A stretch of DNA of 64,000 nt, taken from the NCBI GenBank assembly GCA_027459785.1, contig DAIDGU010000057.1:34150-98149 (forward strand), given 5' to 3'. The DNA comes from Ktedonobacteria bacterium. GTDB lineage: Bacteria; Chloroflexota; Ktedonobacteria; Ktedonobacterales; JACDGC01. The notes below the pieces were generated by a model that saw only the letters and a program-made list of their open reading frames with translations, was not told where the DNA came from and ran no database searches. Shown piece by piece: positions 4,263-53,085 of the stretch (within the stretch, counting starts at the first letter, position 1; the number at the start of each line of letters is the position of its first letter). The position numbers were made by a program, and so were the translations under genes.

Positions 4263-4321
4263 GACTTATGCGGGGAACTGGTTATGCCACTGCCAGAATG
4301 GCAACAGAAAGAGGGATCGCC

Positions 4322-4729
4322 ATGTCAACCGTCTCACAACCACTGGACATCAGCGTCACACTGCCGCTCGCCTTCGATGCCGCGCTTCAGCGCGTTACCA
4401 CCGCCTTGCAAGCGGAAGGATTCGGCGTCTTAACCACAATCGACGTGCAAGCCACCCTCAAAGCCAAGCTGAACGAAGACGTTGCCCCTTACACGATTCT
4501 GGGTGCCTGCAATCCCAAGTTGGCGCACGAAGCCTTGCTTATCGATCCCCAGGTAGGATTGCTCTTGCCCTGCAATGTCGTCGTCCAGGCCACCGCCGAC
4601 GGTACCCGCGTTGCCGCCATCGATCCCGTGGTGATGTTAGGTGCCGCCCAACAGCCGGCACTCGCAGCGATTGCCCGTGAAGCCCAAGCGCGCATGCAGC
4701 GGGTCATCGCCGCGCTGCGGACCGCCTGA
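4322..4729 (+). CDS. DUF302 domain protein
   Basis: MSTVSQPLDISVTLP...GFGVLTTIDVQATLKAKL...LLPCNVVV, a DUF302-like pattern. RBS AGAGGG upstream. It is the 3' part of track ORF 3884..4729. Confidence 0.7.
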   Translation: MSTVSQPLDISVTLPLAFDAALQRVTTALQAEGFGVLTTIDVQATLKAKLNEDVAPYTILGACNPKLAHEALLIDPQVGLLLPCNVVVQATADGTRVAAIDPVVMLGAAQQPALAAIAREAQARMQRVIAALRTA

Positions 4730-4732
4730 TGT

Positions 4733-5251
4733 TCATTCGACCGCCGTCACGCGCTCGATGCCGGGAATGACATCCAGCGTCACTTGCTGGCCGGCATGGC
4801 AAACCTGCTCGTGCAGGGCGGCGTCGATGGCGAAGGGGCGCAGCGTCCCATTCGGCAGCCGCAAGGTGATGAAGTGGTAGGGATCGCGCGCGACCGGCAC
4901 GATTTCCTGGGGATTGCAGATCGCGGCGTCGATGCGCCCGGACACGCGCTCCGGCGGCTGGTGCGTCGCTTTGAGATACGCGGGCAGGTACGACCACACC
5001 ACGCTCACAAAGAACATAAAAGTCAGCAGAAACACTAAGCCCAGGAAAAAAGCCGTCGAACCCTGGCCGTGCAGCGCGCCTTGCGGCCCATTCAGCAGCG
5101 CGTCGAGGGCGGCAACCACCAGCGCGGTGATGCCGAACATGCTCCCCAGGCGCAAACGCTGCACGGTATAGTCCAGCGGGCGACCCCAGCCCCGAATATT
5201 GCGTCGCACGAGACTACTGATGATCCGGCGGCGCATTGAGTCAGCATACAT
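4733..5251 (-). CDS. hypothetical membrane protein
   Basis: 172-aa ORF with two hydrophobic segments (FGITALVVAALDALL; FFLGLVFLLTFMFFVSVVW). No family recognised. Confidence 0.5.
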   Translation of the reverse strand: MYADSMRRRIISSLVRRNIRGWGRPLDYTVQRLRLGSMFGITALVVAALDALLNGPQGALHGQGSTAFFLGLVFLLTFMFFVSVVWSYLPAYLKATHQPPERVSGRIDAAICNPQEIVPVARDPYHFITLRLPNGTLRPFAIDAALHEQVCHAGQQVTLDVIPGIERVTAVE

Positions 5252-5266
5252 ACAGCATCATCCCCT

Positions 5267-5284
5267 ATGTTCCACGTGGAACAT
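5267..5284. repeat. palindrome copy 1 (ATGTTCCACGTGGAACAT, 18-bp perfect)
   Basis: Exact palindrome between the stop of 5284..6249 and the start (5251) of the downstream minus-strand gene. Confidence 0.95.
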
Positions 5285-6249
5285 TATTGTTGTGCCATCT
5301 GTTCCGCTGATGTGGCCCGCACAGCGGCATACAGATCGTGCGCGGCATGCGCCTCGGCCTCGCGCAACGGCAAGAGCGGCGGACGCGGCTCGCCGCCATA
5401 GCCACGGACCTCGCGCAATGCCGCCTTCAGTCCCGCAACCCCATACGTTGCCGTCACGAACTGGTTCAGCGGAATGATCTGTGCTTGCAGCCGTTGCGCC
5501 GCCACCTCGTGTGCCTGGGCCGCGGCCACTGTCGCCGCGCTGAAACGCCGTTGCCATAGATCATACACGCCGCACGTGAGATCGGGTATGACATTCGCCA
5601 CAGCCGCGATCGCGCCCGTCCCCCCGACGCTGAGCGCCGGCACCAGAAAGCTCCCGCTGCCGGCCAGCACAGCGAAGCCGGGCGGCGTCTCCGCCGCGAT
5701 GCGCGCCATTTTCGCCACCTGGCCACTGCTATCCTTCACGCCGATGATATTGGGGTGCCGCGCCAATTCGATGATCAGTTCCGCGCTCAGATCCAGGTTC
5801 GCGGCGTTGGCCGGCATGTTGTAGATCAGCAGCGGCAGCGGACTGGCGTCGGCAACAGCCAGGAAGTGGGTGCGGAGCGCCGCCGGTGACATCTGCGTGG
5901 GAAACGCGAAGGGCGGCAGCACCACAGCGGCATCCGCGCCCGCCTCGGCGGCGGCCCGACAGCGCGCGATGGTTCCCCGCGTGGCGAAATCCGCCGTCCC
6001 CGCCAGCAACACGCGCCGCGCCGGACCCTGGTTTGTGCCGATAGCTTCCCGCACGGTGCGGATGACGGCCACGCGCTCCACATCGTTCAGATGCATGGCC
6101 TCGCCATTCGACCCCAGCGCCAAAATGCCGGCCAGCGGAAACTCCAACAGCCAGGTAACATGGCGCGTCAGTGTCGGCAGATCCACTTCACCCTGGTCAT
6201 CGAAAAACGTCGGGATGGGGGGAAAGATGCCCCCCGGCAGCGATGTCAT
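5284..6249 (-). CDS. dihydrodipicolinate synthase/N-acetylneuraminate lyase family aldolase
   Basis: LGSNGEAMHL and IIGVKDSSG (Schiff-base Lys context) are typical of the DapA family. Confidence 0.85.
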   Translation of the reverse strand: MTSLPGGIFPPIPTFFDDQGEVDLPTLTRHVTWLLEFPLAGILALGSNGEAMHLNDVERVAVIRTVREAIGTNQGPARRVLLAGTADFATRGTIARCRAAAEAGADAAVVLPPFAFPTQMSPAALRTHFLAVADASPLPLLIYNMPANAANLDLSAELIIELARHPNIIGVKDSSGQVAKMARIAAETPPGFAVLAGSGSFLVPALSVGGTGAIAAVANVIPDLTCGVYDLWQRRFSAATVAAAQAHEVAAQRLQAQIIPLNQFVTATYGVAGLKAALREVRGYGGEPRPPLLPLREAEAHAAHDLYAAVRATSAEQMAQQ

Positions 6250-32011: not shown

Positions 32012-33970
32012 TCACGATACCAACATGATCGGCGAGCCGATCAACGCGGCGGAAACCGTCATCAGCGTCGTGGGCGGCGCATAGGTGCCGTTCCAGGCGA
32101 TCTGCCACTCGCCGCCGGCGTAATCGGGCGGCAGGGTGAGGGTGAGGCGCACCCACTTGCCGTGATAGAGATCGTCGCCGTTCAACGAGGTTTGGATCGC
32201 GGGCATGCCGCTGACCGTGGTCATGCGCGCCCAGGTGGGATATGTGACACTGCCGCCAGCGGCGGGCGGGACGATGCGCAGCGCCACCGCGCCGGCCCCT
32301 AGCCCTGGATTGAAGAGGCCGAGCGCGATTTGGCGGCCCGCGTAAGAGGCGGGGATGTTCGCCAGCGGATACATTTGGGATGAACCACCTTGCAGCATCA
32401 CCGTCGCCGCGTTCCAGGGCGTGATGGTCGCGCCGCCCGTCGCGCAGTCATCGGCGGTCGTCGTCGCATTGCGACAGACCTTGACGGCGTAGCCATGTAC
32501 GCCGTAACCTGCGCTGGTATCGACCGTCAGCCGATAATAAGCGGGGGCGTTCGCGGGGGCGGCGGGGACATTAGAGCCGACGCGCACCCACTGCATGTAA
32601 TCAGGCGGCAATGCAGACTGGCAACCAACCCCATAGGCGATAGGCTGCTGGTAGCTGCTGCCCGCGCCGCTCTGCACGTTCCACGTGCCAGCCGATGGGC
32701 AGCCATGCGCGGCGAGATCATTGGGTGCGGCATCCAATGATGGCAGCGTGGTGATCTGGGTCGGCGGCAACGGCGCGTTCGGCGTGGTATCTGGCGGCGT
32801 GGCGGCGGGCCACAGCGCGGCCAGCGGCACATCGGCGTTGCGCTGATAGAGCAGCGGCACACTGAATAGCGTATAGGCGAGTTGCGGATAGAACGCCGGA
32901 TTATCTGTCATGCCGGTCGAGTAGATATTTTCCGTGGTAAAGAGCTGATCGTTACGGTTCGTGCCAGTATAAACGAAGCGCGGATTCCACACCCACACCG
33001 AATAGCCGCTGCCACCCGCCGGAATGGTGATGAGATAGCTCGCTCCCGTCGGCACTGGTCCCGTGCGCGTCGCCAGGCCGCCAAAACCGCTGGGAATCTG
33101 GTCGGGATTGCCCGGCGTCCCCGGACTACAATTCGGGCCGCTGGCATACTGGGGCGCGTTCGTGCCAATGCTCAGTTGTGAGGTGGTGTAGATGTTGGTG
33201 GCGGCATCAGCATGCAGGGTATCCGCGCCATCGCTCCAGCCCGTCTCGCACTGCACGCTATAGGGATCGCCACGCTCCTTCAACTCATAGGGGCTAGCCA
33301 GCGCCGCGACCTGTTGCCCGATGTTTTCTGGTTTATCACCGAAAGCTCCAGTGCTATCGCCGAGCGCGACCGGCGGCAGGATCTCCGCCGTGGCCGTCGC
33401 CAGCGTCGTCGCGGGCGCAGGATCGATGAGCGCCACCAGTGACACCGGTACATTGATGTGGATGGTCACGGTCAGCGCCGGCACCGGATTCACCTGCGAT
33501 GTGACTGAGATCGCGCTGGCGTCACCGAAGCCGTTCTGCGCGGCGACCTGAAGCGCCTGGCTCGTCGCGTCGCTGCCATCCGGCGCGGGCGTGGCCACCG
33601 TGGGGTATTGTGGGAGATAGGCGACGCCGGCCAGCGCGGCGGCTTCCGCCGCTCGTTCCGCCTGGGCGAACGCGATATAGACGCGCAACCCATCGATCGA
33701 TAACCCGACGAGCATCAGCAGCGTCACCACGCTCAGCGCGAAAAGGACGAGCGCCTGGCCCTTGGCAGCACGGGGAGGCCGAGGATACCAACAGCCACAC
33801 CCTACAAGGCTACGAAACGCACGAAAGGAAACCGGAGACACTAGCCACAACGGGTCCAAGCTTTCGCCGCGCCACGAACACAAGCACGCGCGCCAGCGCG
33901 CCCATACATCGAGCAAGCCGAGTTTTTTGCTTTTGAGATGAAAAGGCGGTGATGATGACATTTGGTTCAT
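32012..33970 (-). CDS. TadG-like pilus assembly/minor pilin protein, large (about 650 aa)
   Basis: KGQALVLFALSVVTLLMLVGLSIDGLRVYIAFAQAERAAEAAALAG is a TadG/Tad_N-type N-terminus. Its ATG overlaps the tadE-like stop (ATGA). The 5' part of track ORF 32012..34504 overlaps the upstream gene and is rejected. Confidence 0.65.
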   Translation of the reverse strand: MNQMSSSPPFHLKSKKLGLLDVWARWRACLCSWRGESLDPLWLVSPVSFRAFRSLVGCGCWYPRPPRAAKGQALVLFALSVVTLLMLVGLSIDGLRVYIAFAQAERAAEAAALAGVAYLPQYPTVATPAPDGSDATSQALQVAAQNGFGDASAISVTSQVNPVPALTVTIHINVPVSLVALIDPAPATTLATATAEILPPVALGDSTGAFGDKPENIGQQVAALASPYELKERGDPYSVQCETGWSDGADTLHADAATNIYTTSQLSIGTNAPQYASGPNCSPGTPGNPDQIPSGFGGLATRTGPVPTGASYLITIPAGGSGYSVWVWNPRFVYTGTNRNDQLFTTENIYSTGMTDNPAFYPQLAYTLFSVPLLYQRNADVPLAALWPAATPPDTTPNAPLPPTQITTLPSLDAAPNDLAAHGCPSAGTWNVQSGAGSSYQQPIAYGVGCQSALPPDYMQWVRVGSNVPAAPANAPAYYRLTVDTSAGYGVHGYAVKVCRNATTTADDCATGGATITPWNAATVMLQGGSSQMYPLANIPASYAGRQIALGLFNPGLGAGAVALRIVPPAAGGSVTYPTWARMTTVSGMPAIQTSLNGDDLYHGKWVRLTLTLPPDYAGGEWQIAWNGTYAPPTTLMTVSAALIGSPIMLVS

Positions 33971-34539
33971 CCTGGGGTGAGCGGTACAACGACATGATCG
34001 ACCACAGAGAGTGAGCCAGTGGCGATCAGTGGCGTTTGCCAGGTGTAGGTGTAGTCGATTTCGACGCCAAGCATGGCAGGCGGCGTAAAAGCAGGGGTGC
34101 GCTGCGCCGGCGACCAATTCATGGCCTGGGCGGGTGGGGCGCTCACCAGGCTCACACAGCCCGGATCGCCGGCATACACATCTGCATAGGCGCTGCCGCC
34201 CAGGCCACCAAGTGGCAATCCATCGCTCCCCGGCTGGTAGATGCTGATGCGCGTGATCGTGAGGCCGGCATATGGGCCGAGGCCGGCAGCAATCGCCCCC
34301 AGCGCATCGCAATCCGCCACCGCCGCATTCCCTGCCGCCGCCGCGCTGAGCGCGCCCTGGCGCGCGGCATATGTCACCGCGAGGTGCGCGTTCAGCAGCG
34401 CTCCCATGTCCACCACCCCGGCGAGCATCACGAAAAGGATGGTCACGAAGAGGACGAACTCGACCAAGCTCTGCCCGCGCCTTTTTCCACTGGGTTTTAT
34501 ACACAAGCGTTCCACGTGGAACATGGTGCCGTGAAACAT
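33967..34539 (-). CDS. TadE-like protein
   Basis: RRGQSLVEFVLFVTILFVMLAGVVDMG is the TadE N-terminal motif. Palindrome copy 6 lies in its first codons. Confidence 0.7.
   Translation of the reverse strand: MFHGTMFHVERLCIKPSGKRRGQSLVEFVLFVTILFVMLAGVVDMGALLNAHLAVTYAARQGALSAAAAGNAAVADCDALGAIAAGLGPYAGLTITRISIYQPGSDGLPLGGLGGSAYADVYAGDPGCVSLVSAPPAQAMNWSPAQRTPAFTPPAMLGVEIDYTYTWQTPLIATGSLSVVDHVVVPLTPG
34509..34522. repeat. palindrome copy 6 (GTTCCACGTGGAAC)
   Basis: Exact 14-mer. It is read as M-F-H-V-E-R at the 5' end of the tadE-like ORF. Confidence 0.95.
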
Positions 34540-34541
34540 CC

Positions 34542-35108
34542 TCAGCCTCCCTCCGGCGCGAGCGGCATTATCGCCGTCGCATTCAGCGTCAGCGTCGCGC
34601 CCGTCGCCCCGATGAACGAGGTCAGCCAGGTATACCGATACGTGATGCGCACGCCCAGGTAGACCGGCGCGGCGACCGTGCTGACACGGCTGGCGACGGG
34701 CCAGGACGGCGACGTGAGAGCGTTGCCCGCCCCATCATAGACATCCTCCGCGCCACCGGTTGGCCCAGCGCCCGTGGCATCGGATTGATAGATAATGATC
34801 TGCGTGATCTGCGCGACGAAAAGCGGCTGCACGATGCGCCGAATCAGCGCCTCCGTCTGCGCATCCGCATTGCCCAGCCGCGTCGCATCCAGCGCCGCCG
34901 TGCGCGCGCCCTGATGAGCGGCAGTGTCATAGAGCGCCGTCGCGCTATAGATCAGTGCTAATTCGATCAACCCGAAAAGCAGTGCCAGAAACAACGGCAG
35001 CACCAGCGCGAACTCGACGAGCGCCTGGCCGTGTCGGGCGGGGATACGTCCCACATGGCGCTGGGACGGCGGGGGCGAGGTGAAGTGCGGGGACGGCGGG
35101 CGCGGCAT
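34542..35108 (-). CDS. TadE-like protein (start uncertain; the ORF is open up to 35468)
   Basis: HGQALVEFALVLPLFLALLFGLIELAL is the TadE motif. The upstream 120 codons are encoded by REP and tandem-repeat DNA. Confidence 0.6.
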   Translation of the reverse strand: MPRPPSPHFTSPPPSQRHVGRIPARHGQALVEFALVLPLFLALLFGLIELALIYSATALYDTAAHQGARTAALDATRLGNADAQTEALIRRIVQPLFVAQITQIIIYQSDATGAGPTGGAEDVYDGAGNALTSPSWPVASRVSTVAAPVYLGVRITYRYTWLTSFIGATGATLTLNATAIMPLAPEGG

Positions 35109-35137
35109 CGGCGGGCGGTTGGCGGTGTGACGGGGAC

Positions 35138-35262
35138 GCGGGCGGTTGAAACCGCGCCGTTGGGGCCATCCGGCCACGAAACCTGCCTGCGCAGGTTCAC
35201 GCCAGTCCGCGAAGGCGGACTTCGTCGCCGCCAGGCGCTTAGGCGCGGTTTCAACCGCCCGC
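35138..35262. repeat. REPIN-like doublet: two REP units in inverted orientation
   Basis: GCGGGCGGTTGAAACCGCGCC...CACGAA-ACCTGC/CTGC/GCAGGT hairpin (35180..35197), then AGTCCGC/GAAG/GCGGACT (35204..35221) ...GGCGCGGTTTCAACCGCCCGC. Confidence 0.75.
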
Positions 35263-35324
35263 GTCCTCGTATCGGCAACCGCCCGCGTCCTCGTATCGGC
35301 AACCGCCCGCGTCCCCGTATCGGC
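35253..35324. repeat. 24-bp tandem repeat x3 (AACCGCCCGCGTCCTCGTATCGGC)
   Basis: Three consecutive units; the third has 1 mismatch. A degenerate CCGCCGCAACCTCCCG x2 follows. Confidence 0.85.
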
Positions 35325-35464
35325 AACCGCCCGCCGCAACCTCCCGCCGCCCGCCGCAACCTCCCGCGTCCCCCGCGCTCCGGCCATTGCCCGCATCCCC
35401 GGTACTCCCACTATTGCCCGCGTCTCCGGTGCTCCTTCCCGTACTACATATCTGCTTGTTATCC

Positions 35465-36394
35465 TCATAGCCGCATCCCCGGTGCGACCGAGTGGATGAT
35501 CTGGGGGATTGATGGCCCCAGTAGCACGATGAAAAGCGGCGGAAAAACGAGGATGACGAGGGGGAACATCATCTTGATCGGCGCTTCGCGGGCGAGGGTT
35601 TCGGCGCGCTGGCGGCGACGCACGCGCATATCAGCGGATTGTTCGTGCAGCACCTGTTCCAGCGGAGCGCCGAGCTGACGACTCTGGTTGATGGTGGCGA
35701 CGAGCGTGTGGATCTCATCCAGCCCCACGCGGTCGGCGAAGTGTTGCAGCGCGTCGCCCAGGTGGACGCCAGCGCGCAATTCCAGCAGCGTGCGCCCCAG
35801 TTCGGCGCGCATCACTGGCGGCGCATGCTCCGTCACGCGCGCCAAGGCGCGCTCCAACGCCATCACCCCTGTGCAAAGCGTCAGCATATCCAGCAGGTCA
35901 GGCAGGGCCGCACGAATGTCGCCCTGGCGTGTCTTGGCTTTGCCGTTCACCCACATCACCGGCAGCATATACGCCGCCGCCGCCGCGCCCACCCCACCCA
36001 ACACCACCTGCACCATACCGCCGCTGGCCACGAGCGCCAACGCGGCGAAACACAGACCAAAACCCACGCCCGCGAAAAAGCGCAACGCCATGAAGGTCGA
36101 GGCGTCTAAATTGCCGCCGAGGTCGGCCCGATTGATCACCCGCTGCATCTTATCCAGCGAGTTGCCGGGTGCCAACCGCCCGATACTTTTGCCCAGGTTA
36201 CTCAACATCGGGCGCACCAGACGTTCAAGCAAGGGACGACGCAATTCATCATCCACCATAACGATCCGCTGGCGCAAAAGGCGATCCAGCCGCTGCTGCA
36301 CGGCGTCGCCGCGCGCCCGCCGTCCCACGCCCACGACTAGCACGATCACGCTGATCCCCGCACAACACGCCGCTACTAGCGAATAGGCTATCAT
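35465..36394 (-). CDS. tadC: Flp pilus assembly protein TadC (T2SS F-family)
   Basis: ALPDLLDMLTLCTGVMALERAL...INQSRQLGAPLEQVL...AREAPIKMMFPLV, a typical TadC pattern. Confidence 0.8.
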   Translation of the reverse strand: MIAYSLVAACCAGISVIVLVVGVGRRARGDAVQQRLDRLLRQRIVMVDDELRRPLLERLVRPMLSNLGKSIGRLAPGNSLDKMQRVINRADLGGNLDASTFMALRFFAGVGFGLCFAALALVASGGMVQVVLGGVGAAAAAYMLPVMWVNGKAKTRQGDIRAALPDLLDMLTLCTGVMALERALARVTEHAPPVMRAELGRTLLELRAGVHLGDALQHFADRVGLDEIHTLVATINQSRQLGAPLEQVLHEQSADMRVRRRQRAETLAREAPIKMMFPLVILVFPPLFIVLLGPSIPQIIHSVAPGMRL

Positions 36395-36482
36395 AAACGA
36401 ATCCTTCCGTTCCCCGTGAAACAGGCGAGTGCCTCAAGAAACATCACACCTGCTATTTCCAATTCAGACCCTTCCCTGCACG

Positions 36483-37445
36483 CTACACGCGGATATCGAC
36501 GACTTTGCGGATGACGACGACGCCGAGCGCGATCATGATGCCCGCCGTCAGGAACATCGTCCAGCCGCACCAGGTCGTCGTCTGAAACACGCCCAGGATG
36601 TAATGGGGATTGAAGACGAGCAGCAAAAGCAAGATGGCGACGGGCATCAGCGCCACGACATAGCCGGAATAACGTTGCTGCGCCGTCAGCGACTTCACCT
36701 CACCTTCCAGGCGTACGCGCTCGCGGATCGTCTCGCTGATGCGTTCGAGCATCTGCACCAGATTGCCGCCGCTCTCAGTCTGGATGGCGATGGCTGTGAC
36801 GAGCAATTGCAGATCGACGCTGGGGACGCGATCCGTCAGGTTCGTCAGCGCCTCTTTGACGCCGGTGCCATAGGTGATCTGCTGCACCACCAATTGCAGT
36901 TCCTTCGAGATCGGCGGCTTGGTCTGGCGCGCGGCCAGGTCCAGCGCCTGAGCGATGGTGCTGCTGCCGGAGCGCAGGGCGCTGGCGATCAGTTGCACCG
37001 CGCCGGGCAGTTGCGCGTCGAAGTCGCGCGCCCGCTTCGCACGGCGGGCGGCAATCCACCATTGCGGCCCCCAAAACGTGCCGGCGACGAGCAGCATGAA
37101 GAGGAAGATGTTATGGAGGACGACGCTCAGAAGGAGGCCCAGGCCCAGCAAGATGGCGACCAGCAGGATGAATTCACCGGCGGTCAGCGGCACGCCCGCG
37201 CGCGAAAGCTGTTCGTCCAACCCCACACGCCCGGCGAAGCGATTGAGCGCGGCGACGAGCTGGCCGGCGTCCTGGCGCGGCAGGGCATCGCGCGCCAACC
37301 CCTGGCGCTGGATCTCGAGCTGGCGCAAGCGATCTGCCACGCGGTTATGCCGGCGCGTCCATTCACGGCTGAGGCCGAAAAGGATGGTGAAGACCGCCAG
37401 CGCGCTCAGCACGCTCACCAGCAGCGGCACCTGACCCGCGCTCAT
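36483..37445 (-). CDS. tadB: Flp pilus assembly protein TadB (T2SS F-family)
   Basis: QLPGAVQLIASALRSGSS...IQTESGGNLVQMLERISETIRER. ATGA overlap with the cpaF stop. Confidence 0.8.
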   Translation of the reverse strand: MSAGQVPLLVSVLSALAVFTILFGLSREWTRRHNRVADRLRQLEIQRQGLARDALPRQDAGQLVAALNRFAGRVGLDEQLSRAGVPLTAGEFILLVAILLGLGLLLSVVLHNIFLFMLLVAGTFWGPQWWIAARRAKRARDFDAQLPGAVQLIASALRSGSSTIAQALDLAARQTKPPISKELQLVVQQITYGTGVKEALTNLTDRVPSVDLQLLVTAIAIQTESGGNLVQMLERISETIRERVRLEGEVKSLTAQQRYSGYVVALMPVAILLLLLVFNPHYILGVFQTTTWCGWTMFLTAGIMIALGVVVIRKVVDIRV

Positions 37446-38842
37446 GGCCGCGCCTCACGGCGAAAGATCGTCGGCGGCACAGGATAACCACGCCGCTCCA
37501 TCTCGTCCAGCAGGCGCGGCACGGTCCCTTTGGCGCGCAATCGACCGTGTACGCGGCCCTGCTCATCCAGTCCGGCGCGCTCGAACTCGAAGATCTCGAC
37601 CACCTCCACACCGTCGCCGTTCGCCCCCGCGCGCAATTCGGCGATGGAAGCGATCTTGCGCGAGCCGTCCTCGAAATGGTTCAGATGCACGATCAGGTTG
37701 ATGGCGCTGAGGATTTGCGCGCGCACGGCGCGGTCCGGCAGATCGATGCCAGCTTGCAATACCAGCATCTCCAGCCGGTTCAGCACGTCCGGCGCGCTAT
37801 TCGCGTGCAGCGTCGTCATCGATCCCTCATGGCCCGTATTCATCGCTTGCAACATGTCCAGCGCCTCGCCGCCACGACACTCGCCGACGATAATACGGTC
37901 GGGCCGCATTCTGAGCGCGTTAGCTACGAGCTGGCGAATCGTCACCTGATGCTTGCCCTCAACACTGGGCGGGCGGCTTTCCATGCGCACCACGTGCGCC
38001 TGCTGCAACTGCAATTCCGCCGCATCCTCGATGGTGATGATGCGCTGCTCCTGGGGGATGAAGACCGACAGAACGTTGAGGATCGTCGTCTTACCGGTGT
38101 TGGTGCCGCCGGAGACGATGATGTTCATCCGCGCCTCCACGCAACGCTGCAAAAAGAGCATCATATCGCGCGAGATCGTGCCGTTGTCGATCAGATCTTG
38201 CGGCTGCAACGCCTTCGCTGCGAACTTCCGGATCGTCAGGATGGGACCGTCGAGCGCGATAGGGCGGATGACGATGTTGACGCGCGACCCATCTTTCAGG
38301 CGAGCATCCACCGTCGGCGTCGTCTCATCCACGCGCCGCCCGATCTGCGAGACGATGCGCTCGATGACGCGCATCAGGTGCGGTTCGTCGTGGAACCGGA
38401 TGTCGGTCTGCATCATCGCGCCGCGCCGCTGGTCAATCCACACGCGGTATGGTCCGTTGACCATGATTTCGGTCACGTTCTCGTCGGCCAACAAGGGTTC
38501 GATGGGACCATAGCCCAGGATGTCGGCCAGGCAACGCGCAATCAGCGCCAGGCGCTCGTTCTTGCTCAGGGGCATCTGCTGCTTCTGCGCCTCAATATCG
38601 ATGATGCGCTGCAAACGCTCTTCCACCTCGCGTCGCATCTGCACCGGTGGCAACTGATCGATCTGGGTCTTGCTCGTCTCCAGGTCCGCCACCAGCAACA
38701 ATTGGATCTTGCGCTGCAAGTCGTAATAGGCCTGTTCGCGCGCGGTGGGACCGGTGCGGCCAGTGCCGCGCAGATCGCCGCTGCCGCTGGGGCGCGGCGT
38801 CGTCGGGTGGGCGGGCATATCAGCATAGCGTCGGGGTGTCAT
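37442..38842 (-). CDS. cpaF: Tad secretion ATPase CpaF/TadA
   Basis: VSGGTNTGKTTILNVL (Walker A), IITIEDAAEL, GHEGSMTTLHANS. GGAGG RBS. Confidence 0.9.
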   Translation of the reverse strand: MTPRRYADMPAHPTTPRPSGSGDLRGTGRTGPTAREQAYYDLQRKIQLLLVADLETSKTQIDQLPPVQMRREVEERLQRIIDIEAQKQQMPLSKNERLALIARCLADILGYGPIEPLLADENVTEIMVNGPYRVWIDQRRGAMMQTDIRFHDEPHLMRVIERIVSQIGRRVDETTPTVDARLKDGSRVNIVIRPIALDGPILTIRKFAAKALQPQDLIDNGTISRDMMLFLQRCVEARMNIIVSGGTNTGKTTILNVLSVFIPQEQRIITIEDAAELQLQQAHVVRMESRPPSVEGKHQVTIRQLVANALRMRPDRIIVGECRGGEALDMLQAMNTGHEGSMTTLHANSAPDVLNRLEMLVLQAGIDLPDRAVRAQILSAINLIVHLNHFEDGSRKIASIAELRAGANGDGVEVVEIFEFERAGLDEQGRVHGRLRAKGTVPRLLDEMERRGYPVPPTIFRREARP

Positions 38843-38860
38843 TCAAGCATGCCTCCTACA

Positions 38861-40066
38861 TCACGCGCGCGGTTTTTTCGTCGCTTGCAAATCTTGATAC
38901 AGCCGCCGCGCCAGGTCGTGCATCGCACGGCTGATGGGCGCACGGCGCGCATAGGTGACGAAAGGGACGCCGCGATTGACGGCCCCGATGACGGTGCGCA
39001 CATCGTCGGGAAACTGCGCGGCGAAGCGCCGCCCCAGCGACTGTTCGACGCGCTTAGGGGCGATCTGATAGCCGCCATCCATACGATTGCCGATCAGCCA
39101 GCAACGGTCGCCAGCGATACCCCGCCGGCGCAAGCCTTCCAGCAAGCCCTTCACACGATTGATGGCAGTGATCTCCGGCGTCGTAACGATCAAGAGGCGG
39201 TCGGCGCTCTCCAGGATCGCTTCATTGGCGTCGGTGAAAGTGGCATCAGTATCTACCACCGTCACATCGCAATGCTCACGCACCTCAACCAGGATCGCAC
39301 GCATCGTCTCGCGCCGGAACTCGCGCGCCACCTCTGGATCATCCGGCGAACGCAAGAGGCGGATGCCTGAATCATGGCGCACAGCGACCGATTGCAACGT
39401 CTCGAAGTCCAGATCTTCAGGATCGCGCAACATGTCGAGGGAGTGGTTGATGTGATCAAGGTTCAGCAAGACGTGGTCATCACCGGCGGCGAGGTTGCCA
39501 TCTACCAGCAGCACCTCTTCGGCACACGCATGCAAGGCCACCGCCAGGTTCGCCGCGATGATGCTGCGCCCAACACCACCCTTCGCGCCACAGACAGCCA
39601 CCAGGTGTTGCCCGCGCGCGGATGTTCCACGTGGAACACTGGGATGCGCGCCCGAACCCCGGCTGGTCCCCGGCAACTGCACCACCCGGCGGATCGCGCG
39701 CAACACGTCGTCGGCGCGCAAGGGCTTCACCAGAAAACCACGCGCCCCCACGTCCAGCGCCTGCTGCATCAGATCCTTGCTATCTTCGACAGACATCAGG
39801 ATGATCTGCGCCGGCACCTCCATGCTGAGGACGTGCGCCGCTGCCAGCCCGTCCATGCCGGGCATGTAGATATCCATGAGGATGATATCCGGCTGGTGCC
39901 GCCGCGCCAGCGCGATGCCCTCCCTGGCATCCGTGGCGATGCCGACGACGCGCAGATCCGCCACGGTGCTGAGCCAGCGGCGCACCGCCTGGGCCGTTTC
40001 GATGAGGTCGTCGATGATGAGGATGCGGATCGGCTGGCCCGCTCCTTCAGGTGAGTGCTGTGCCAT
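38861..40066 (-). CDS. CpaE/TadZ-like ParA/MinD-family ATPase with a canonical N-terminal receiver domain
   Basis: Receiver: ILIIDDL...DIILMDIYMPGMDG...IILMSV...GFLVKP. ATPase: VAVCGAKGGVGRS (deviant Walker A). GGGAGGGG RBS. Confidence 0.8.
   Translation of the reverse strand: MAQHSPEGAGQPIRILIIDDLIETAQAVRRWLSTVADLRVVGIATDAREGIALARRHQPDIILMDIYMPGMDGLAAAHVLSMEVPAQIILMSVEDSKDLMQQALDVGARGFLVKPLRADDVLRAIRRVVQLPGTSRGSGAHPSVPRGTSARGQHLVAVCGAKGGVGRSIIAANLAVALHACAEEVLLVDGNLAAGDDHVLLNLDHINHSLDMLRDPEDLDFETLQSVAVRHDSGIRLLRSPDDPEVAREFRRETMRAILVEVREHCDVTVVDTDATFTDANEAILESADRLLIVTTPEITAINRVKGLLEGLRRRGIAGDRCWLIGNRMDGGYQIAPKRVEQSLGRRFAAQFPDDVRTVIGAVNRGVPFVTYARRAPISRAMHDLARRLYQDLQATKKPRA
39623..39638. repeat. 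palindrome copy 7 (TGTTCCACGTGGAACA)
   Basis: Exact 16-mer inside the cpaE-like CDS. It is read S-V-P-R-G-T-S in the linker between the receiver and ATPase domains. Confidence 0.95.
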
Positions 40067-40249
40067 CCTTGGCCCCTCCCGCCTGTGCAAGCGCAAGAGG
40101 GATGCCAGCCCAAGCATAAGTCCGATAGTCCTTTATCTACCACATGAATTCCGCTCACATCTCACGTATAATAGATGATGTCCAGAGATATGTTGTCTCT
40201 GGCTGTGCATCGTCCTCTTGACATGATCGGAGGAGAAAGGATCTGGACC

Positions 40250-40501
40250 ATGCCCTTGTATCTCGACAAGCACCATCACATCGACGGCCTGACCACCGAT
40301 GGGGTGAAGCAAGCGCATGAAGCTGACCTCGCGATCCAGGAACAGTATGGTGTCACGTATTTGCAGTATTGGTTCAACGAAGAGACTGGCACGGTCTTTT
40401 GTTTGGTAGAGGCACCTAGCAAAGAAGCCGCCGCCACCGTTCACCGTCTCGCTCACGGGTTGGAAGCCGATGAGATCGTCGAAGTGCAGCCAGGAAGCTG
40501 A
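40250..40501 (+). CDS. DUF4242 family protein
   Basis: MPLYLDKHH...VKQAHEADLAIQEQYGVTYLQYWFNEETGTVFCLVEAPSKEAAATVHRLAHG. GGAGGAG RBS. Confidence 0.7.
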   Translation: MPLYLDKHHHIDGLTTDGVKQAHEADLAIQEQYGVTYLQYWFNEETGTVFCLVEAPSKEAAATVHRLAHGLEADEIVEVQPGS

Positions 40502-40679
40502 GCAGATCTGCCACGATAAGCGGCTGGTTCCTTTATAGCGGATCTGGCCGCTTATTGATGATTGGTAACGAATGATCCCTTATCGCACTAGGAAGTGAGG
40601 GCGAGCCGACTTTCAAAGCCGTATGAGGGTTTCTTGGGCTGGACGCAACAGGCGATTAAGCCACAGACTTTATGACCGG

Positions 40680-41879
40680 CTACTGACTACTCAGCACTGG
40701 CTTAAAAAGCTTTTTGTTAGCGGCAGCAACAAAGCTAAAGAATGCTAATAGTGACACTATCAGAGCGATTGTCCAATTATTGCCAAGAAATTGTAGAGCA
40801 AACCCCACGAGGAAAAGACCAGCAGAGTAAGCAAGGAAATCTCCTGACCGCGTAATGCTGGCAACTCTTCCTTGAATATGATGGGGTATTACGCCTGAAA
40901 TATTGCCACAAATAATATAAAAGGCTGGCAGTATGGCGAACAAGAGCGCAGTCACCACCGTTAATAGCGTAATATTGTATGCAAACAAATACAAGGAGAA
41001 CGTTACTGCACAGAGTATATTGGTGATGACGAGCATTGTATAGCGGTCGTATTGGTGCATTACTTTACCGAAGAATGCGGAGCCGAGGATGCCAGCGACG
41101 GCACTAATCGCCAAAACGATACCAATAGTAGTCGCTGAAGCGTGTAAGTCACGCGCGAATACAATCACCAGCAGTGAGAGGGCGGAAGTGGCCAATGCTC
41201 TGGCCCATGAAAGAGCAATGAAAACCCTATACATACGATTATGCCAGAACCATGCACCAGCCTCTTTAAGACCTTTTCGTATGCTCGTTTGCTTTAGGGC
41301 ATCTGGAGCTGATAAGGGAGAATTTATGAGTACTAAGGCTATGACGTTCAAGAAATACGACAGAGAGTCTGTCGCAAAGGAGAAGACAGCTCCAACTGTT
41401 TGATACAAAAAACCGCCGAATGAGGGTCCTACGAGCATTGCGAAGTGCTCAATCATACTATCCTGAGCAACTGCTTGAGGTAATTGCTCATTCGCTACAA
41501 GAAATCTACGGGATGAGAACCTACCAATATTTGCAAATACGAAACACCCGCCCTCAATGCCCATAAGAATAAATAGCTCGACAACTGTAAGCCGATGGAG
41601 GAATAGGCCAATGGCGAGCATTGCAAAGCCACTCCCCGCATTCCCAGCGAGCATTATGTTTCGTCTATTCCATTTATCGAGAATGTAGCCTGCGGGTATA
41701 GCTAAGAGCACATAGGTCACTCCTCGCATTGCAACAACCGAACCGGCAATTGCTGATGAGCCGGTCAGTGATAGGATAACGAGCGGCATAGCAATGCCCG
41801 AGATTTCTGTACCCATCCATGAGAGGCCTTGTCCGGCCCACATTAGCATGTAGTTACGCTGTTTCCAGAGTGGTTGCAT
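40680..41879 (-). CDS. MFS transporter (AT-rich, likely foreign)
   Basis: ~12 hydrophobic segments. The start is taken at MQPLWKQRNYMLMWAGQ. A hand count of 40741..40800 gives 22/60 G+C. Confidence 0.8.
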   Translation of the reverse strand: MQPLWKQRNYMLMWAGQGLSWMGTEISGIAMPLVILSLTGSSAIAGSVVAMRGVTYVLLAIPAGYILDKWNRRNIMLAGNAGSGFAMLAIGLFLHRLTVVELFILMGIEGGCFVFANIGRFSSRRFLVANEQLPQAVAQDSMIEHFAMLVGPSFGGFLYQTVGAVFSFATDSLSYFLNVIALVLINSPLSAPDALKQTSIRKGLKEAGAWFWHNRMYRVFIALSWARALATSALSLLVIVFARDLHASATTIGIVLAISAVAGILGSAFFGKVMHQYDRYTMLVITNILCAVTFSLYLFAYNITLLTVVTALLFAILPAFYIICGNISGVIPHHIQGRVASITRSGDFLAYSAGLFLVGFALQFLGNNWTIALIVSLLAFFSFVAAANKKLFKPVLSSQ

Positions 41880-42216
41880 AGAGTGATAATAACACACAAA
41901 TGACTGCTGTTGTATGGCCCCCATATTGCAACCGCCATTGCAGCGCATTCGATACAGTCAGATAACCAATCGTCGGTGGGTTATGAAGCGCGCTCGGCTA
42001 GTGCGATTCGCCCGGCATCATCTAAGGGAAGGTTGCGTTATATAGATCGGGAATAGCCGTCGTCGTGAGAACGGTGGCGAAGGAACGTGCCTCGACTTTC
42101 AATGTTGCGATAGTTAAAATAGGAAGCATGGCTCACCTCTTTGCCTCAGCGACATTCAATGTCTCCATGCTATGCCATAACTCACCACTCTGTCAAACTA
42201 TTCTGCTTTCATCTCA

Positions 42217-47922: not shown

Positions 47923-48486
47923 GAGAGATCGTCCTCCTCAGAGTTAGAACGACGAAACAAGAAGCGCGGCGTGCCAGCGTCGCATGTTCCTCAGTTTGCC
48001 GGCTACATCCCCGCCGGCGGTGGCCCCGACCCAACACGCGCGACGGATTCAGCATCCGCGCGACGGCGTTGGGCAGGCTGGTCCACGCGCCGCCGCCGCG
48101 TGCGCCCACGTGCCACGCCACTCCGGGAAGCAGGACGACACGCCTATGGAACACACAACCTCGCACATGCCGCGCCAGGCATGACATGCCGGACGAGAAA
48201 ACCTTCCCGCCCACCTGGGGCGACCGGCGAGTGCAACGCGAAACTTCGGGTGCCAGGGTCACGGCCCTGGGCAAATTTGCGACATGGCAGCGCCACATCT
48301 GCTCACAGCATACAACGCGCACGGTCCCAACGGCAAAACACCCGAATAATACGCCTAAATCGCTTGAAATAACCTTAGCGAAACTGCTGGCGGCGGACGC
48401 CGGCGCGCACCACTTGCTGCCGACACTGCCCCTTGCACCGAAAAGCGAGATCACGGCGGTAGGCGGCTGAGCGGCGTTCCACATCT

Positions 48487-48813
48487 CCACAAAGTTATCC
48501 ACACGTTTGCGGGGGGGGACTTCCTGGCCGGCGTCTTCGCGCGTGGGACATGGCACATTGCAGCACGCTTTAGCCACCCAGCGGGATATCCGCCGCGATG
48601 GCGACCTCGCGGAATTGGCCGGCGCGCAACCCGCCGGGTAAAAGCTGCTTGCCGACGGCGTGCAGCCGCGCCCGCCGCGCTGCCAGGTCCAGCGCGGGAT
48701 CGGTCACGCCGGGATCGGGAACCACCCACGGCGCGACAGCCAGCAGTTCACCCGTCATCTTTTGCCCCGTTACGGTGTGGATAAAGCCGGAGTTACCCAC
48801 AAAGTTATCCACA
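48487..48813. promoter_or_regulatory. three perfect DnaA boxes, including a 17-bp exact direct repeat
   Basis: TTATCCACA at 48495..48503 and 48805..48813; TGTGGATAA at 48776..48784. CCACAAAGTTATCCACA is repeated exactly at 48487 and 48797. Confidence 0.6.
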
Positions 48814-49885: not shown

Positions 49886-50599
49886 ATGATCACCTTCGAG
49901 GATGTCACGCGGCTGTTTCTGCACGCCGCCGAAACCACCGGCATCACCACCCACCCCGATAGCTGGCTGAATGTCGAGACGCTGGAACGCGAGTTCGAGA
50001 GCATCTGCCATCTGGGGCCGTGCGAGGAAGCCGAAGACAAGGCGACCTGTGGCGTCTCCTTCAGTTGGAGTCCGTTGGATACCGCCCTCTCGCTGGATGG
50101 GCCGCAAGGCGTGTGCGATTTCTTCCACGATCCCAACGACACGTGTCCGCACCTGCACACGGAAGATGTGCCGCCGCTCGCACTGGATCTCGCCTACACC
50201 GTCGCGCTGAATAACATCCCGCTGGATCGGTTGGATCTGCAACCATTAGTGCGCATCCTGAAATATCGCGCGTCGGAAAACTCCAGCCGTGCCATCGAGA
50301 CGCGCCCCAGCATCGGCGTGATCTATGGCGAAAACGGTCCTGAAGCCGAAAGCGTGACCTTACAGCAACACGTCGAGCTGCCCCTGTGGAATCCCGAATT
50401 GCTGGGTGCCTTCCGCGATACCATCGAGCGCCAGCGCGGAGCCAGCCACCACGGGCGCAAACATTTTCGCTGGCAGGACGACGACGACGAGACCGGCCAG
50501 GAAGACTGGCTGCCGCCATTGATGGAAGCGGTCGTGGCCGACATCGAACACGTCCTGACCGCGCTGGATGACCTCTCGCTCACCCCCTTCACGCGCTAG
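49886..50599 (+). CDS. hypothetical protein (237 aa, acidic, several Cys/His)
   Basis: ATG-initiated ORF with GC3-rich codon usage. No family recognised. Confidence 0.5.
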   Translation: MITFEDVTRLFLHAAETTGITTHPDSWLNVETLEREFESICHLGPCEEAEDKATCGVSFSWSPLDTALSLDGPQGVCDFFHDPNDTCPHLHTEDVPPLALDLAYTVALNNIPLDRLDLQPLVRILKYRASENSSRAIETRPSIGVIYGENGPEAESVTLQQHVELPLWNPELLGAFRDTIERQRGASHHGRKHFRWQDDDDETGQEDWLPPLMEAVVADIEHVLTALDDLSLTPFTR

Positions 50600-50612
50600 C
50601 ACCGTCCACAGT

Positions 50613-50640
50613 CCCCTCCCCTGCCGCAAAGAGGGAGGGG
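50613..50640 (+). terminator. hairpin after the stop (CCCCTCCC / GGGAGGGG, 12-nt loop)
   Basis: 8-bp perfect G/C stem 14 nt after the stop. No U-tract. Related in sequence to the CCCCTCCCC repeat family. Confidence 0.4.
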
Positions 50641-50838
50641 GAGATAAACATCGTCCTTTGCTTGAAAGCTTAGGCAGAACAATGAACCCTGTATTAATGC
50701 CGCCGCTCAACTTGGCTATACGGTGTTAGCCTTCATGATCACATGTTATCGGCCAGGAGGACCAAAGCACGCCGCAAAGTGGTCGGCTGATTTTAAATCT
50801 CGGCGACCGTAAACTAGGTACGTAATGGAGGATACAGT

Positions 50839-51084
50839 ATGCAGCCTAAAGGGTCTTGTCCACGCTGTGGGATCGGCATGTTAGCACCAGAAGTGGTTGA
50901 AGAGACTTTAATTGTAGGACCAAATGCCGTACAAGTCACGGTCGAAGCCGACGTCTGCTCGTACTGTGGCGAACGTTGGTTTGCTCCCCCGGCAATTGCC
51001 ACCATCGATGTTGCTATCCAGCATTTGCGTACTGGTGATCTCTCGCACCTAAACCACATCGGCGAGGTGTATAAAGCTTCCTAA
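50839..51084 (+). CDS. YgiT-type zinc-finger protein (MqsA-like antitoxin N-domain type)
   Basis: CPRCG...N31...CSYCGERWF. TGGAGGA RBS. Lies in a lower-GC patch. Confidence 0.65.
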   Translation: MQPKGSCPRCGIGMLAPEVVEETLIVGPNAVQVTVEADVCSYCGERWFAPPAIATIDVAIQHLRTGDLSHLNHIGEVYKAS

Positions 51085-51353
51085 ATATAGGGCGTCACCG
51101 CTCTTGCACCATCATCTTGGCTGGCAATTAGAATTGGCGTCCACGATCCCACCCCTGCTAGCACGGCAAAAAGTCGCGCTCGGCAACGGTTTACTTTTCG
51201 GCGAAAGATATCCACGTTTCCCCAGCCCCTACGTATTACTAAAGATCTTTATTCTAAATAGATAGAAGATAGTCGTCGTCGTAATAGGGCCGTGGACGGT
51301 GTGGACATCTCGCCCGCCCCCAGGCGCAGCCAGGCATGGTGCATGCTCTAGTA

Positions 51354-51609
51354 TGTGGATAGGGTGTGGTTGGCATGCGGGCAGGATGTGGAGGCGCGTG
51401 GATATCTTCTGCGTCAGCGATCAGTTATGCCCCACTCATCCACAGTCGTCCCCAACGGGTCCACACCTTCTCCGCATATCCCCAATGGCTTCCACATGTG
51501 GATAACTGATTGTGGATAGCGTGGATGATCGCTCTCCCCAGGGCATCCACAATCCGCCAACCACTTCTCTACCCTTTGTCCACGCACTTTTCCACAATCA
51601 TGTGGATAA
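51354..51609. promoter_or_regulatory. dense DnaA-box cluster (candidate oriC or DnaA-titration locus)
   Basis: Perfect TGTGGATAA at 51497 and 51601. One-mismatch boxes at 51354, 51436, 51511 and 51588, plus several two-mismatch boxes. AT-rich tract at 51227..51275. Confidence 0.6.
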
Positions 51610-51646
51610 CTTTGCTGGCGGACAGGAATGGTCGCTCTACGCACTT

Positions 51647-52474
51647 TTAATGGAAGCTGAGGACGAGCGAGCGCACGACCAGCCCCCAGCCATCCACCAG
51701 CACGAAGAGCAGCAGCTTGAAAGGCAAGGAGACGATGGTGGGCGAGAGCATCATCATGCCGACCGACATCAGCGATGTGGAAACGACCAGATCGATGACG
51801 ATGAAGGGCAGCAGGATCAAGAAGCCCATCTGAAACGCCGTCTTGATCTCGCTGAGGATGAAGGCGGGAATCAGCACATACGTTGGCACGTCGGCTTGAG
51901 TGCGCGGTGCTGGCATCTTCGCCAGGTAAACGAAGAGCGAGAGGTCTTTTTCGCGTGTCTGACGGAACATGAAGGCGCGTAGCGGCACCTGGGCGCGGTC
52001 CAGCGCGACTTGCTGCGAGATCTTGCCCTGCGAGTAGGGGGTGAGCGCGGTAGCATTGATCTGTTGCCAGGTGGGGGCCATGACGAACACCGTCAGGAAA
52101 AGCGCCAGCCCGACGATCACCTGATTCGGCGGCACCTGCTGCGCGCCCAGGCCGGAGCGCAGAAACGACAGCACGATCAGGATGCGCGTGAAGCCGGTCA
52201 GCATCATGATCAGCGAGGGTGCCAGGCTGAGGATGGTGATGAGCGCCAGCACCTCCAGCGGCACGCTGGTATCATTGGCTGAGGTGGTTGGCGGGGTGGT
52301 AACGTTCCCCGCCGGCGCGGTGGTCGTCGTGCCGGTCGGCCCGTTCACCGTGATCTGCAAGCCGGGTGTGCCGCTACCCGTCGTCGGCGCGGCGTCCAGC
52401 GAGCAGCCACCGAAAATCAAGGCCAGGGCAAAAATCCCCAGGCACAGCCAGCGTTGTCGTCTGATCCGTCGCAT
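51647..52474 (-). CDS. fliP: FliP/SctR-family type III export-gate protein, solitary
   Basis: [94 protein letters not shown]. Lipobox-like FGGC. GGAGGG RBS. Confidence 0.85.
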
Positions 52475-52782: not shown

Positions 52783-53085
52783 ATGCCCATGCCTTTACCG
52801 GTGCCTGATCCATCTGATGAGGATTGCGTTTGGGATAGTGCCTTTGACTTCGACGACGAGGCGGATGATCCGGTCGATCTGCTCCTGCCCGTCGATACGC
52901 CCCTGGCCGACCAACTGGCGCTGGACGACCTCTTCGACCAGGGTTTTACGTGGGAGGAGGGTTTGCGATTGTTGATTCTGCGCGAACACCTTTATGACGT
53001 GCCGGAAATGCGTGAGCGTGTCACCGGTGATCCCCATCTGCACTTCCTGCGCTGGCTGTATGATCGGGGGGTGTATTCGAGCTAG
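52783..53085 (+). CDS. hypothetical small acidic protein (100 aa)
   Basis: MPMPLPVPDPSDEDCVWDSAFDFDDEADD... GAAAGGGG upstream. The 5' part of the track ORF (from 52642) looks non-coding. Confidence 0.45.
   Translation: MPMPLPVPDPSDEDCVWDSAFDFDDEADDPVDLLLPVDTPLADQLALDDLFDQGFTWEEGLRLLILREHLYDVPEMRERVTGDPHLHFLRWLYDRGVYSS

Follow-up and report, generated by a model that had tools for sequence, protein, structure and literature searches.

A candidate DnaA-dependent chromosomal replication origin linked to fliP and separated from dnaA in a Ktedonobacterales bacterium

Where does a bacterial chromosome start to replicate if a dense cluster of DnaA boxes has no dnaA gene beside it? This question is raised by a contig of a Ktedonobacteria soil bacterium, of which a stretch of 64 kb (referred to as the window, 64,000 nucleotides in full length) was analysed. 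The element under discussion fills a gap of ≈ 560 bp (51085–51646) where two convergent genes face each other with their 3′ ends, namely a plus-strand zinc-ribbon open reading frame (ORF) ending at 51084 and the minus-strand gene fliP ending at 51647. A genome scan with FliP places the window in the Ktedonobacteria (Chloroflexota), and we consider it likely that in the flagged stretch the main chromosome of this high-GC Ktedonobacterales bacterium has its DnaA-dependent origin of replication (oriC). A box cluster, an adjacent AT-rich unwinding element and, as judged from local windows, a switch in GC skew come together at this site. The candidate is not adjacent to dnaA, and the sequences compared here indicate that its linkage to fliP has been retained in this bacterial class. 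A dnaA-unlinked oriC had been proposed in the initial annotation of this DNA, and the proposal now gains support from a conserved module and a coincident skew change point with the sign of an origin. The candidate represents a clean but ordinary type of element in an unusual neighbourhood.

With TTATCCACA taken as the DnaA-box consensus, and boxes counted at up to one or up to two mismatches, the array extends from 51300 to 51609 and comprises 13 boxes in both orientations (≤ 2 mismatches) in 310 bp, where an oriC cluster is taken to require at least 3 boxes less than ≈ 100 bp apart. Two of them are perfect and lie on the minus strand (51497 and 51601), four have one mismatch (51354, 51436, 51511 and 51588), and two mismatches are found at 51300, 51397, 51468, 51476, 51520, 51543 and 51576. 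The ten boxes listed in the initial annotation (two perfect, four with one and four with two mismatches) were all recovered at their positions, and two-mismatch boxes at 51208, 51300, 51468 and 51476 can be added to them. The densest 300 bp hold 6 boxes with at most one mismatch and 12 with at most two, compared with maxima of 3 and 6 per 300 bp when the window was simulated 200 times with a first-order Markov model; over the entire window, 5 perfect boxes were observed versus 0.11 expected. All repeats within the gap are derived from DnaA boxes, and the stop codon of fliP is located 37 bp from the first perfect box.

The array is accompanied by a putative unwinding module, read on the minus strand. 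Its origin-proximal boxes (51291–51308) are arranged in tandem, ATGTCCACA (51308–51300, 2 mismatches) followed by the abutting CCGTCCACG (51299–51291, 4 mismatches), and share one orientation such that both point toward the trios. Next come a GCC spacer (51290–51288, minus strand) and a DnaA-trio-like tract of six triplets (51287–51270), which reads 5′-CTA TTA CGA CGA CGA CTA-3′ on the minus strand and 3′-GAT AAT GCT GCT GCT GAT-5′ on the plus strand; from the better box, ATGTCCACA, to the first triplet the spacer measures 12 bp. The AT-rich DNA unwinding element (51227–51269) contains the motif GATCT(T)TAG, which is also found in most relatives. Within the window, 51234–51284 is the least stable 51-nt duplex (rank 1 of 63,950 positions), with −56.2 kcal/mol versus a mean of −78.7 kcal/mol (sd 5.6), i.e., ≈ 4 sd away, and the AT-rich tract noted previously (51227–51275) is real and overlaps this duplex. 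Beyond the unwinding element, an inverted flanking box is present on the plus strand (51208–51216), ATATCCACG, or CGTGGATAT in the orientation of the module. In related loci, designated by L numbers in the following, this position is occupied by TGTGGATAA (L001, L003, L104) or by TGTGGATAT (L005, L006).

In Bacillus subtilis, the unwinding region of oriC (incC) is said to have been described by Richardson in 2016 and 2019 as the basal unwinding system (BUS) composed of DnaA-boxes 6 and 7 and DnaA-trios. The BUS was later searched for across bacteria by Pelliciari (2021), with rules that ask for a box with ≤ 2 mismatches, if applicable a second one in tandem (≤ 4 mismatches), a spacer of 0–16 bp with a peak at 10–13 bp at bacterial origins, then trios of the 3′-GAT-5′ type and then AT-rich DNA; deviant trios lacking the central A were expected by these authors (PMC8287927). 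The orientation of the boxes is essential in B. subtilis (PMC6669920). The module in the window agrees with this scheme in that ATGTCCACA with its 2 mismatches is joined by the tandem CCGTCCACG with 4, both in fixed orientation, followed by a short GC spacer, triplets 5′-CTA/TTA-3′ (3′-GAT/AAT-5′ on the bound strand) and an AT-rich tract. The 12-bp spacer falls within the reported 10–13 bp peak, distal boxes are present upstream in both orientations, and the orientation is the same as in canonical modules between dnaA and dnaN (L086, L092, L098). In contrast to B. subtilis, the module is not situated between dnaA and dnaN, and its three central triplets are GCT instead of NAT, a departure from the strict trio rule that does hold in orthologues.

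How far the module is shared can be judged from the relatives. The six nearest FliP loci (L001–L006, 71–85% FliP identity) all stem from metagenome-assembled genomes; four of these carry the label Ktedonobacterales or Ktedonobacteria, and the other two are annotated as Proteobacteria (L002) and Chloroflexi (L006). The remaining FliP matches came from other phyla. Box array and module were found downstream of fliP in these six loci, in L087, L089 and L096 (obtained by a pattern scan of metagenomes) and in L103 and L104 (obtained by exact-protein look-ups), that is, in 11 fetched loci of 43–61% GC, not all of them independent, since L087 and L002 look identical. The origin is downstream of fliP in each Ktedonobacteria fliP locus that was fetched. 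An orthologous tandem box pair is present in L001–L006 and L104. All three closest relatives match boxes 51601, 51588, 51397, 51354 and 51300 in alignment column and orientation, and four further boxes of the window are matched in both respects by two of the three. According to the alignments, the closest relatives show no change in the box cores, the block CCCTATTAC..CGACGAC.ATC is invariant among close relatives, and an AT tract followed by the inverted TGTGGATAA is found in all relatives aligned. The synonymous divergence of fliP amounts to 0.66–0.90 for the three closest relatives and to 1.25 for L004, and is saturated for the low-GC relatives; neutral DNA would have drifted, yet box cores and block are invariant, so that this conservation is selective.

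The low-GC relatives are instructive with regard to the trios. In L005 (43% GC) the module reads TTATACACA GTTTCCACA GCC CTA TTA TTA CTA CTT CTA ATA, with seven NAN trios, and L006 (43% GC) is near-identical to this textbook module, again with seven trios; recognisable variants of the module exist in L004 and L103. Because the low-GC orthologues L005 and L006 carry seven NAN trios, the GCT triplets of the window look like a high-GC derivative of the canonical trio tract. A scan of the metagenome collection with ACANNNTCCNCNNCNCTATTAYNRCKAC, a pattern built from these loci, yielded 13 matches, three of them linked to fliP and three located in canonical dnaA-module-dnaN spacers in the same orientation (L086, L092, L098), the rest being boxless and random-looking. 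The canonical modules between dnaA and dnaN take the form TTATCCACA CTATCCACA GCA CTA TTA CTA CTA; the DnaA of L092 clusters with Armatimonadota, the module of L098 is near-identical to that of L092, and L086 represents an organism of 38% GC. The sequence of proximal box, spacer and first trio is thus nearly identical across phyla, and because ACANNNTCCNCNNCNCTATTAYNRCKAC also retrieves canonical dnaA-dnaN spacers, the fliP-linked module can be regarded as the same device as the one found between dnaA and dnaN elsewhere.

Comparable clusters are scarce outside these loci. The maximum number of boxes (≤ 1 mismatch) per 300 bp is 4–9 at the Ktedonobacteria origin loci (11 including the window), compared with 0–3 at seven Ktedonobacterales loci without fliP (L081–L084 and L099–L101, 126 kb) and 0–2 at 74 fliP loci of other phyla (1.34 Mb). 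The box cluster is neither common in these genomes nor general to flagellar loci. The initial annotation had named widespread clusters of this kind as a finding that would speak against an origin; none of comparable density was present in 190 kb of the window and related genomes.

The best single change point of GC skew in the window is at 51,500 (500-bp bins; t = −3.96; 1 of 500 bin permutations as extreme), and it is the only significant one. The skew changes from −0.022 on the left of this position to +0.040 on its right, which is the sign of an origin and not of a terminus. To the left of the site, genes have a mean skew of −0.023 on both strands (n = 12 plus, n = 22 minus); therefore, the skew is not an effect of transcription or gene orientation. 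A switch from negative to positive skew at the module was also obtained in the local windows of L001, L002, L003, L005, L006, L103 and L104, while in L004 the skew only rises from −0.022 to −0.011; the tally given for the relatives tested is 8 of 9.

To which replicon would such an origin belong? No match to E. coli DnaA, DnaN, RecF, GyrB, RpmH, RnpA or YidC was obtained by tblastn in the window or in the related origin loci, no ParB was detected in Pfam scans of the large ORFs of the window, and no Bac_DnaA domain occurs in the gene lists of L103 and L104. By tblastn, dnaA and dnaN are absent within 51 kb to the left and 12 kb to the right of the candidate, which is thus not part of an ancestral rpmH-dnaA-dnaN region. 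The earlier statement that dnaA, dnaN, rpmH and parB are missing from the window is borne out by these searches; with respect to parAB it holds for ParB, but a ParA-like protein is present, of the CpaE type and encoded in a Tad pilus operon. This protein is the only ATPase of the ParA/MinD family (38861–40117, 11 kb from the origin) and is fused to a response-regulator domain; the Tad/Flp pilus operon (32012–40117, minus strand) further codes for a TadG-like protein, TadE, two TadB/C proteins (T2SSF) and CpaF (T2SSE). In Pfam-based surveys the CpaE-like fusion would score as 'parA near ori'. A dnaA locus of Ktedonobacteria was also sought, and only L086, L092 and L098 were reached, none of them from Ktedonobacteria. 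The core genes of the window are pgk, gap, dapA, accC, murJ, glnA, argS, coaX and dcd, in addition to an aminotransferase gene, two-component systems, deoC and msrA, and related origins are flanked by infC and purH (L005) or by uvrC and holB (L103). Because housekeeping genes are dense in the window and near the related origins, the gene content points to the main chromosome. A plasmid origin was rejected, as the region 48–54 kb had no megablast match in the plasmid collection.

The origin of a large chromid-like secondary replicon, which would lack its own initiator gene and depend on chromosomal DnaA acting in trans to fire, has to be weighed against this assignment. Cultured Ktedonobacteria possess secondary replicons of 1.6–3.5 Mb that lack parB and a Rep-family initiator and have a parA homologue close to the predicted origin; Ori-Finder puts an origin at their skew extremum (PMC13289182). 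The window resembles them in lacking dnaA, dnaN and parB and in having a ParA/MinD-family ATPase 11 kb from the origin; this ATPase, however, is the CpaE-type response-regulator fusion of a Tad pilus operon, beside CpaF, TadB/C and TadE. The density of core genes in the window, and infC, purH, uvrC and holB beside the related origins, likewise disagree with secondary replicons that are reported to lack most housekeeping, translation and replication genes and to carry only 1–7 of 120 marker genes (PMC6497799, PMC13289182). The window is not housekeeping-poor and shows no partition parA near the origin, and we regard a chromid-like replicon as improbable. Much the same low probability is given to a second, auxiliary or relic DnaA-dependent origin on the same chromosome with the main origin at dnaA-dnaN; it is rare for one bacterial chromosome to have two active DnaA origins. 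It can be argued for such an arrangement that dnaA-dnaN-parA-parB are contiguous on Ktedonobacteria chromosomes (PMC13289182), at the ancestral site of bacterial origins, and that no Ktedonobacteria dnaA locus was retrieved for comparison, the DnaA search having returned Armatimonadota. A local skew switch of correct sign in the window and in seven relatives speaks against it, as a silent relic would not maintain such a switch, and so does the strong sequence constraint on the module across deep divergence.

Box clusters outside oriC exist in model bacteria. A non-firing cluster that titrates DnaA or serves regulation, comparable to datA/DARS, to the DnaA-box clusters of B. subtilis or to a DnaA-regulated promoter, thus had to be considered, the more so as related genomes hold isolated box pairs upstream of genes (L100, L101). 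The cluster in the window, however, lies between two 3′ ends, which leaves no promoter to regulate, and a titration site does not need an oriented module of tandem boxes, spacer, triplets and AT tract. A titration or reactivation locus would have no unwinding element and be situated away from a skew switch, whereas this cluster possesses such an element, coincides with the skew change point and has no counterpart of comparable density in the 190 kb mentioned above. To our knowledge, datA/DARS and the B. subtilis clusters, with which the locus shares a dense box group outside the dnaA region, have no oriented box-trio-AT module and are not placed at a skew switch. The datA/DARS-like fallback of the initial annotation is disfavoured on these grounds, and we consider this group of explanations very unlikely. 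Still less can be said for a hidden gene, or for TCCACA-containing words having accumulated by chance, even if short ORFs of 53–76 codons can be drawn across the region. The simulated maxima (3 and 6) never exceed half of the observed box density (6 and 12); conservation is concentrated on the box cores instead of following a reading frame. None of the ORFs in the gap passes a filter for coding composition based on the GC content at third codon positions (GC3), the translation of the longest one looks non-protein, and an Rfam search of the gap gave no match at E up to 1, for which reasons a hidden RNA or protein gene was rejected. Simulations, box conservation and control loci effectively refute chance and a hidden gene.

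Returning to an oriC of the main chromosome, several points weigh against it. According to PMC13289182, dnaA-dnaN-parA-parB form one contiguous locus on Ktedonobacteria chromosomes, whose relation to the skew minimum is unstated there, and this locus could host the origin or a second one. Within the 64 kb, the cumulative skew is flat between 40.5 and 51.5 kb with tied minima and rises thereafter. The strict BUS rule of at least three consecutive NAN trios does not hold in the window, with two NAN, three GCT and one GAT triplet; a strict trio scan gave no match in the window, L001, L002 and L004, and was passed by L003 (3 trios) and by L005 and L006 (7 trios each), and by eye three consecutive NAN triplets are also seen in L001 and L104. 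Gene orientation adds to these points. The genes directly flanking the cluster converge on the candidate, and 10 of the 12 genes at 11–29 kb are plus-strand genes that a fork leaving this origin would meet head-on. The divergence of gene orientation that had been put forward earlier does exist as a bias at 29–49.8 kb and past 52.8 kb (≈ 15 of 16 genes on the minus strand in the former and 6 of 8 on the plus strand in the latter, by crude GC3-based gene calls); because the flanking genes converge and the genes at 11–29 kb are mostly on the plus strand, it is weak evidence.

If the site is an origin, a sequence of events can be rationalized in analogy to the BUS of B. subtilis. DnaA would fill the ≈ 13 boxes at 51300–51609, of which the distal ones probably make the protein locally more concentrated, as they do in B. 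subtilis (PMC6669920). The pair of tandem boxes closest to the AT tract (51308–51291, minus strand) would then orient an oligomer or filament of DnaA-ATP onto the adjacent triplets, with the plus-strand tract 3′-GAT AAT GCT GCT GCT GAT-5′ (51287–51270) as its target. Stretching of the plus strand would melt the neighbouring AT-rich element (51227–51269), the inverted box at 51208–51216 would bound the bubble, and the replicative helicase would be loaded, after which forks would leave both ways.

In a wider comparison, the candidate resembles E. coli oriC (gidA-mioC) and Caulobacter Cori as a DnaA-box origin that lies away from dnaA with unrelated flanking genes, and shares with E. coli a neighbour transcribed toward the origin (fliP here, mioC in E. 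coli). E. coli oriC scores weakly for a box-trio module (PMC8287927), in contrast to the clear module of the window, which has different neighbours and no evident Dam/SeqA, IHF or Fis logic. By analogy, the candidate would work like a box-trio origin of the B. subtilis type and resemble E. coli and Caulobacter only in its separation from dnaA. The Ori-Finder origins of cultured Ktedonobacteria chromosomes and chromid-like replicons belong to the same class and were likewise inferred from DnaA boxes and a skew extremum; the accessible portions of text and supplements give neither sequence anatomy nor neighbours for them (PMC13289182), whereas the fliP-linked module was found in lineages that are uncultured. 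Cultured strains of Ktedonobacteria are apparently without fliP, as none was found among the 80 best FliP loci.

The right-hand neighbour fliP (51647–52474, minus strand) is unambiguous in its assignment (Pfam FliP, 3.7e-80; NCBIfam TIGR01103, 275.6 bits versus a cutoff of 217). It is the sole flagellar gene in the 64 kb and stands equally alone in L001 and L104; with a dN/dS of 0.13–0.17 versus L001–L004, this orphan gene is nevertheless under purifying selection. In L005 (43% GC), fliL, motB, fliN, motA and fliS are found beside the origin, and the same five genes together with flbD and fliT are present in L102 (50% GC), a locus with neither the origin nor fliP. Because L005 and L102 keep other flagellar genes nearby, their arrangement suggests that the origin lies within what is left of a cluster of flagellar genes. 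On the strand of fliP, a terminator-like hairpin with a T run is located at 51173–51187 (minus strand), just beyond the unwinding element, and no such hairpin follows the fliP stop codon, both as judged by a simple pattern match that yielded 3 hairpins versus 1.3 expected. Because the hairpin is found only beyond the unwinding element and none after the stop codon, fliP transcripts may cross the whole origin. It is conceivable, if unlikely, that the class runs two DnaA-type origins per cell, with the fliP-linked module as an initiator-less chromid origin or as a second active origin beside dnaA-dnaN, and that the orphan fliP has been kept for a read-through role in origin function.

A second group of boxes (48478–48813), 2.8 kb from the origin and with three perfect boxes, had been overlooked in the initial annotation. 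Its intergenic part (48478–48503, plus strand), downstream of a CN_hydrolase-like gene, consists of TCCACA, TCTCCACA and a perfect TTATCCACA. Equivalents exist in L003 (6391/6412) and L104 (8600/8621); L081, in which the gene pair does not adjoin the origin, lacks these boxes. They recur only where the CN_hydrolase-like gene is next to the origin and are a possible auxiliary site. Three further boxes (48776–48813) lie inside the coding sequence of the CN_hydrolase-like gene, on the codons for VDNFVGN and FIHT. Two of the three also occur in L081 (8942/8954), with no origin nearby, and at least two of them are probably by-products of the VDNFVGN codons and not origin elements; a bipartite origin with this group as one half was rejected for the same persistence in L081, far from any origin. 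Boxes in other settings were noticed among the relatives. In L004, two tandem genes for GFO/IDH/MocA oxidoreductases (3870–6245) are interposed between fliP and the module, each preceded by a three-box motif, TTTTCCACAtttGTGGATAAcctGTGGA. L100 contains an isolated pair of perfect boxes (7185/7198), and L101 a perfect and a single-mismatch box (5590/5610) upstream of a methionyl-tRNA-synthetase-like gene, and these pairs are candidate sites of transcriptional control by DnaA.

Between the origin and a gene for an acidic protein of 237 aa lie the zinc-ribbon ORF (50839–51084, plus strand), of the YgiT/MqsA type (TIGR03831, 5e-6), and a small upstream ORF (50568–50729, plus strand). Neither had a tblastn match in L001–L006, and the pair may be the remnant of a toxin-antitoxin system inserted beside the origin. 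The 237-aa protein (49886–50599, plus strand) has no Pfam or NCBIfam match and 270 database relatives, all named ones being from Ktedonobacterales; its gene usually forms a divergent pair with the CN_hydrolase-like gene. A tie of the origin to this gene was rejected, as the gene occurs without a box cluster in L081–L084 and L102. The same applies to a small acidic protein of ≈ 100 aa (52783–53085, plus strand; conserved C-terminal motif DQGFTWEEG..REHL..WLY.RG; 16 database relatives only), whose gene adjoins fliP in the window, L005, L006 and L103 but is found elsewhere in L099–L101. Farther away, a low-GC island (40000–42200; GC 0.49 versus 0.63 overall) with an MFS transporter gene (40680–41948, minus strand) and several of the least stable duplexes of the window may have been acquired horizontally.

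Taken as the likely oriC of the main chromosome, the locus reveals no new mechanism; what stands out is the class-wide linkage to fliP and the clean unwinding module at an origin separated from dnaA. Literature searches found no account of origin anatomy, coordinates or neighbours for the class Ktedonobacteria, and the candidate would provide a sequence-level model of the origin for this large-genome, actinomycete-like class of Chloroflexota. It would also indicate that the box-spacer-trio unwinding module persists once the origin has left dnaA. In practical terms, fliP together with the module may serve as a compact marker to orient fragmented metagenome-assembled genomes of the lineage, and may be of use in coverage-based estimates of growth rate.

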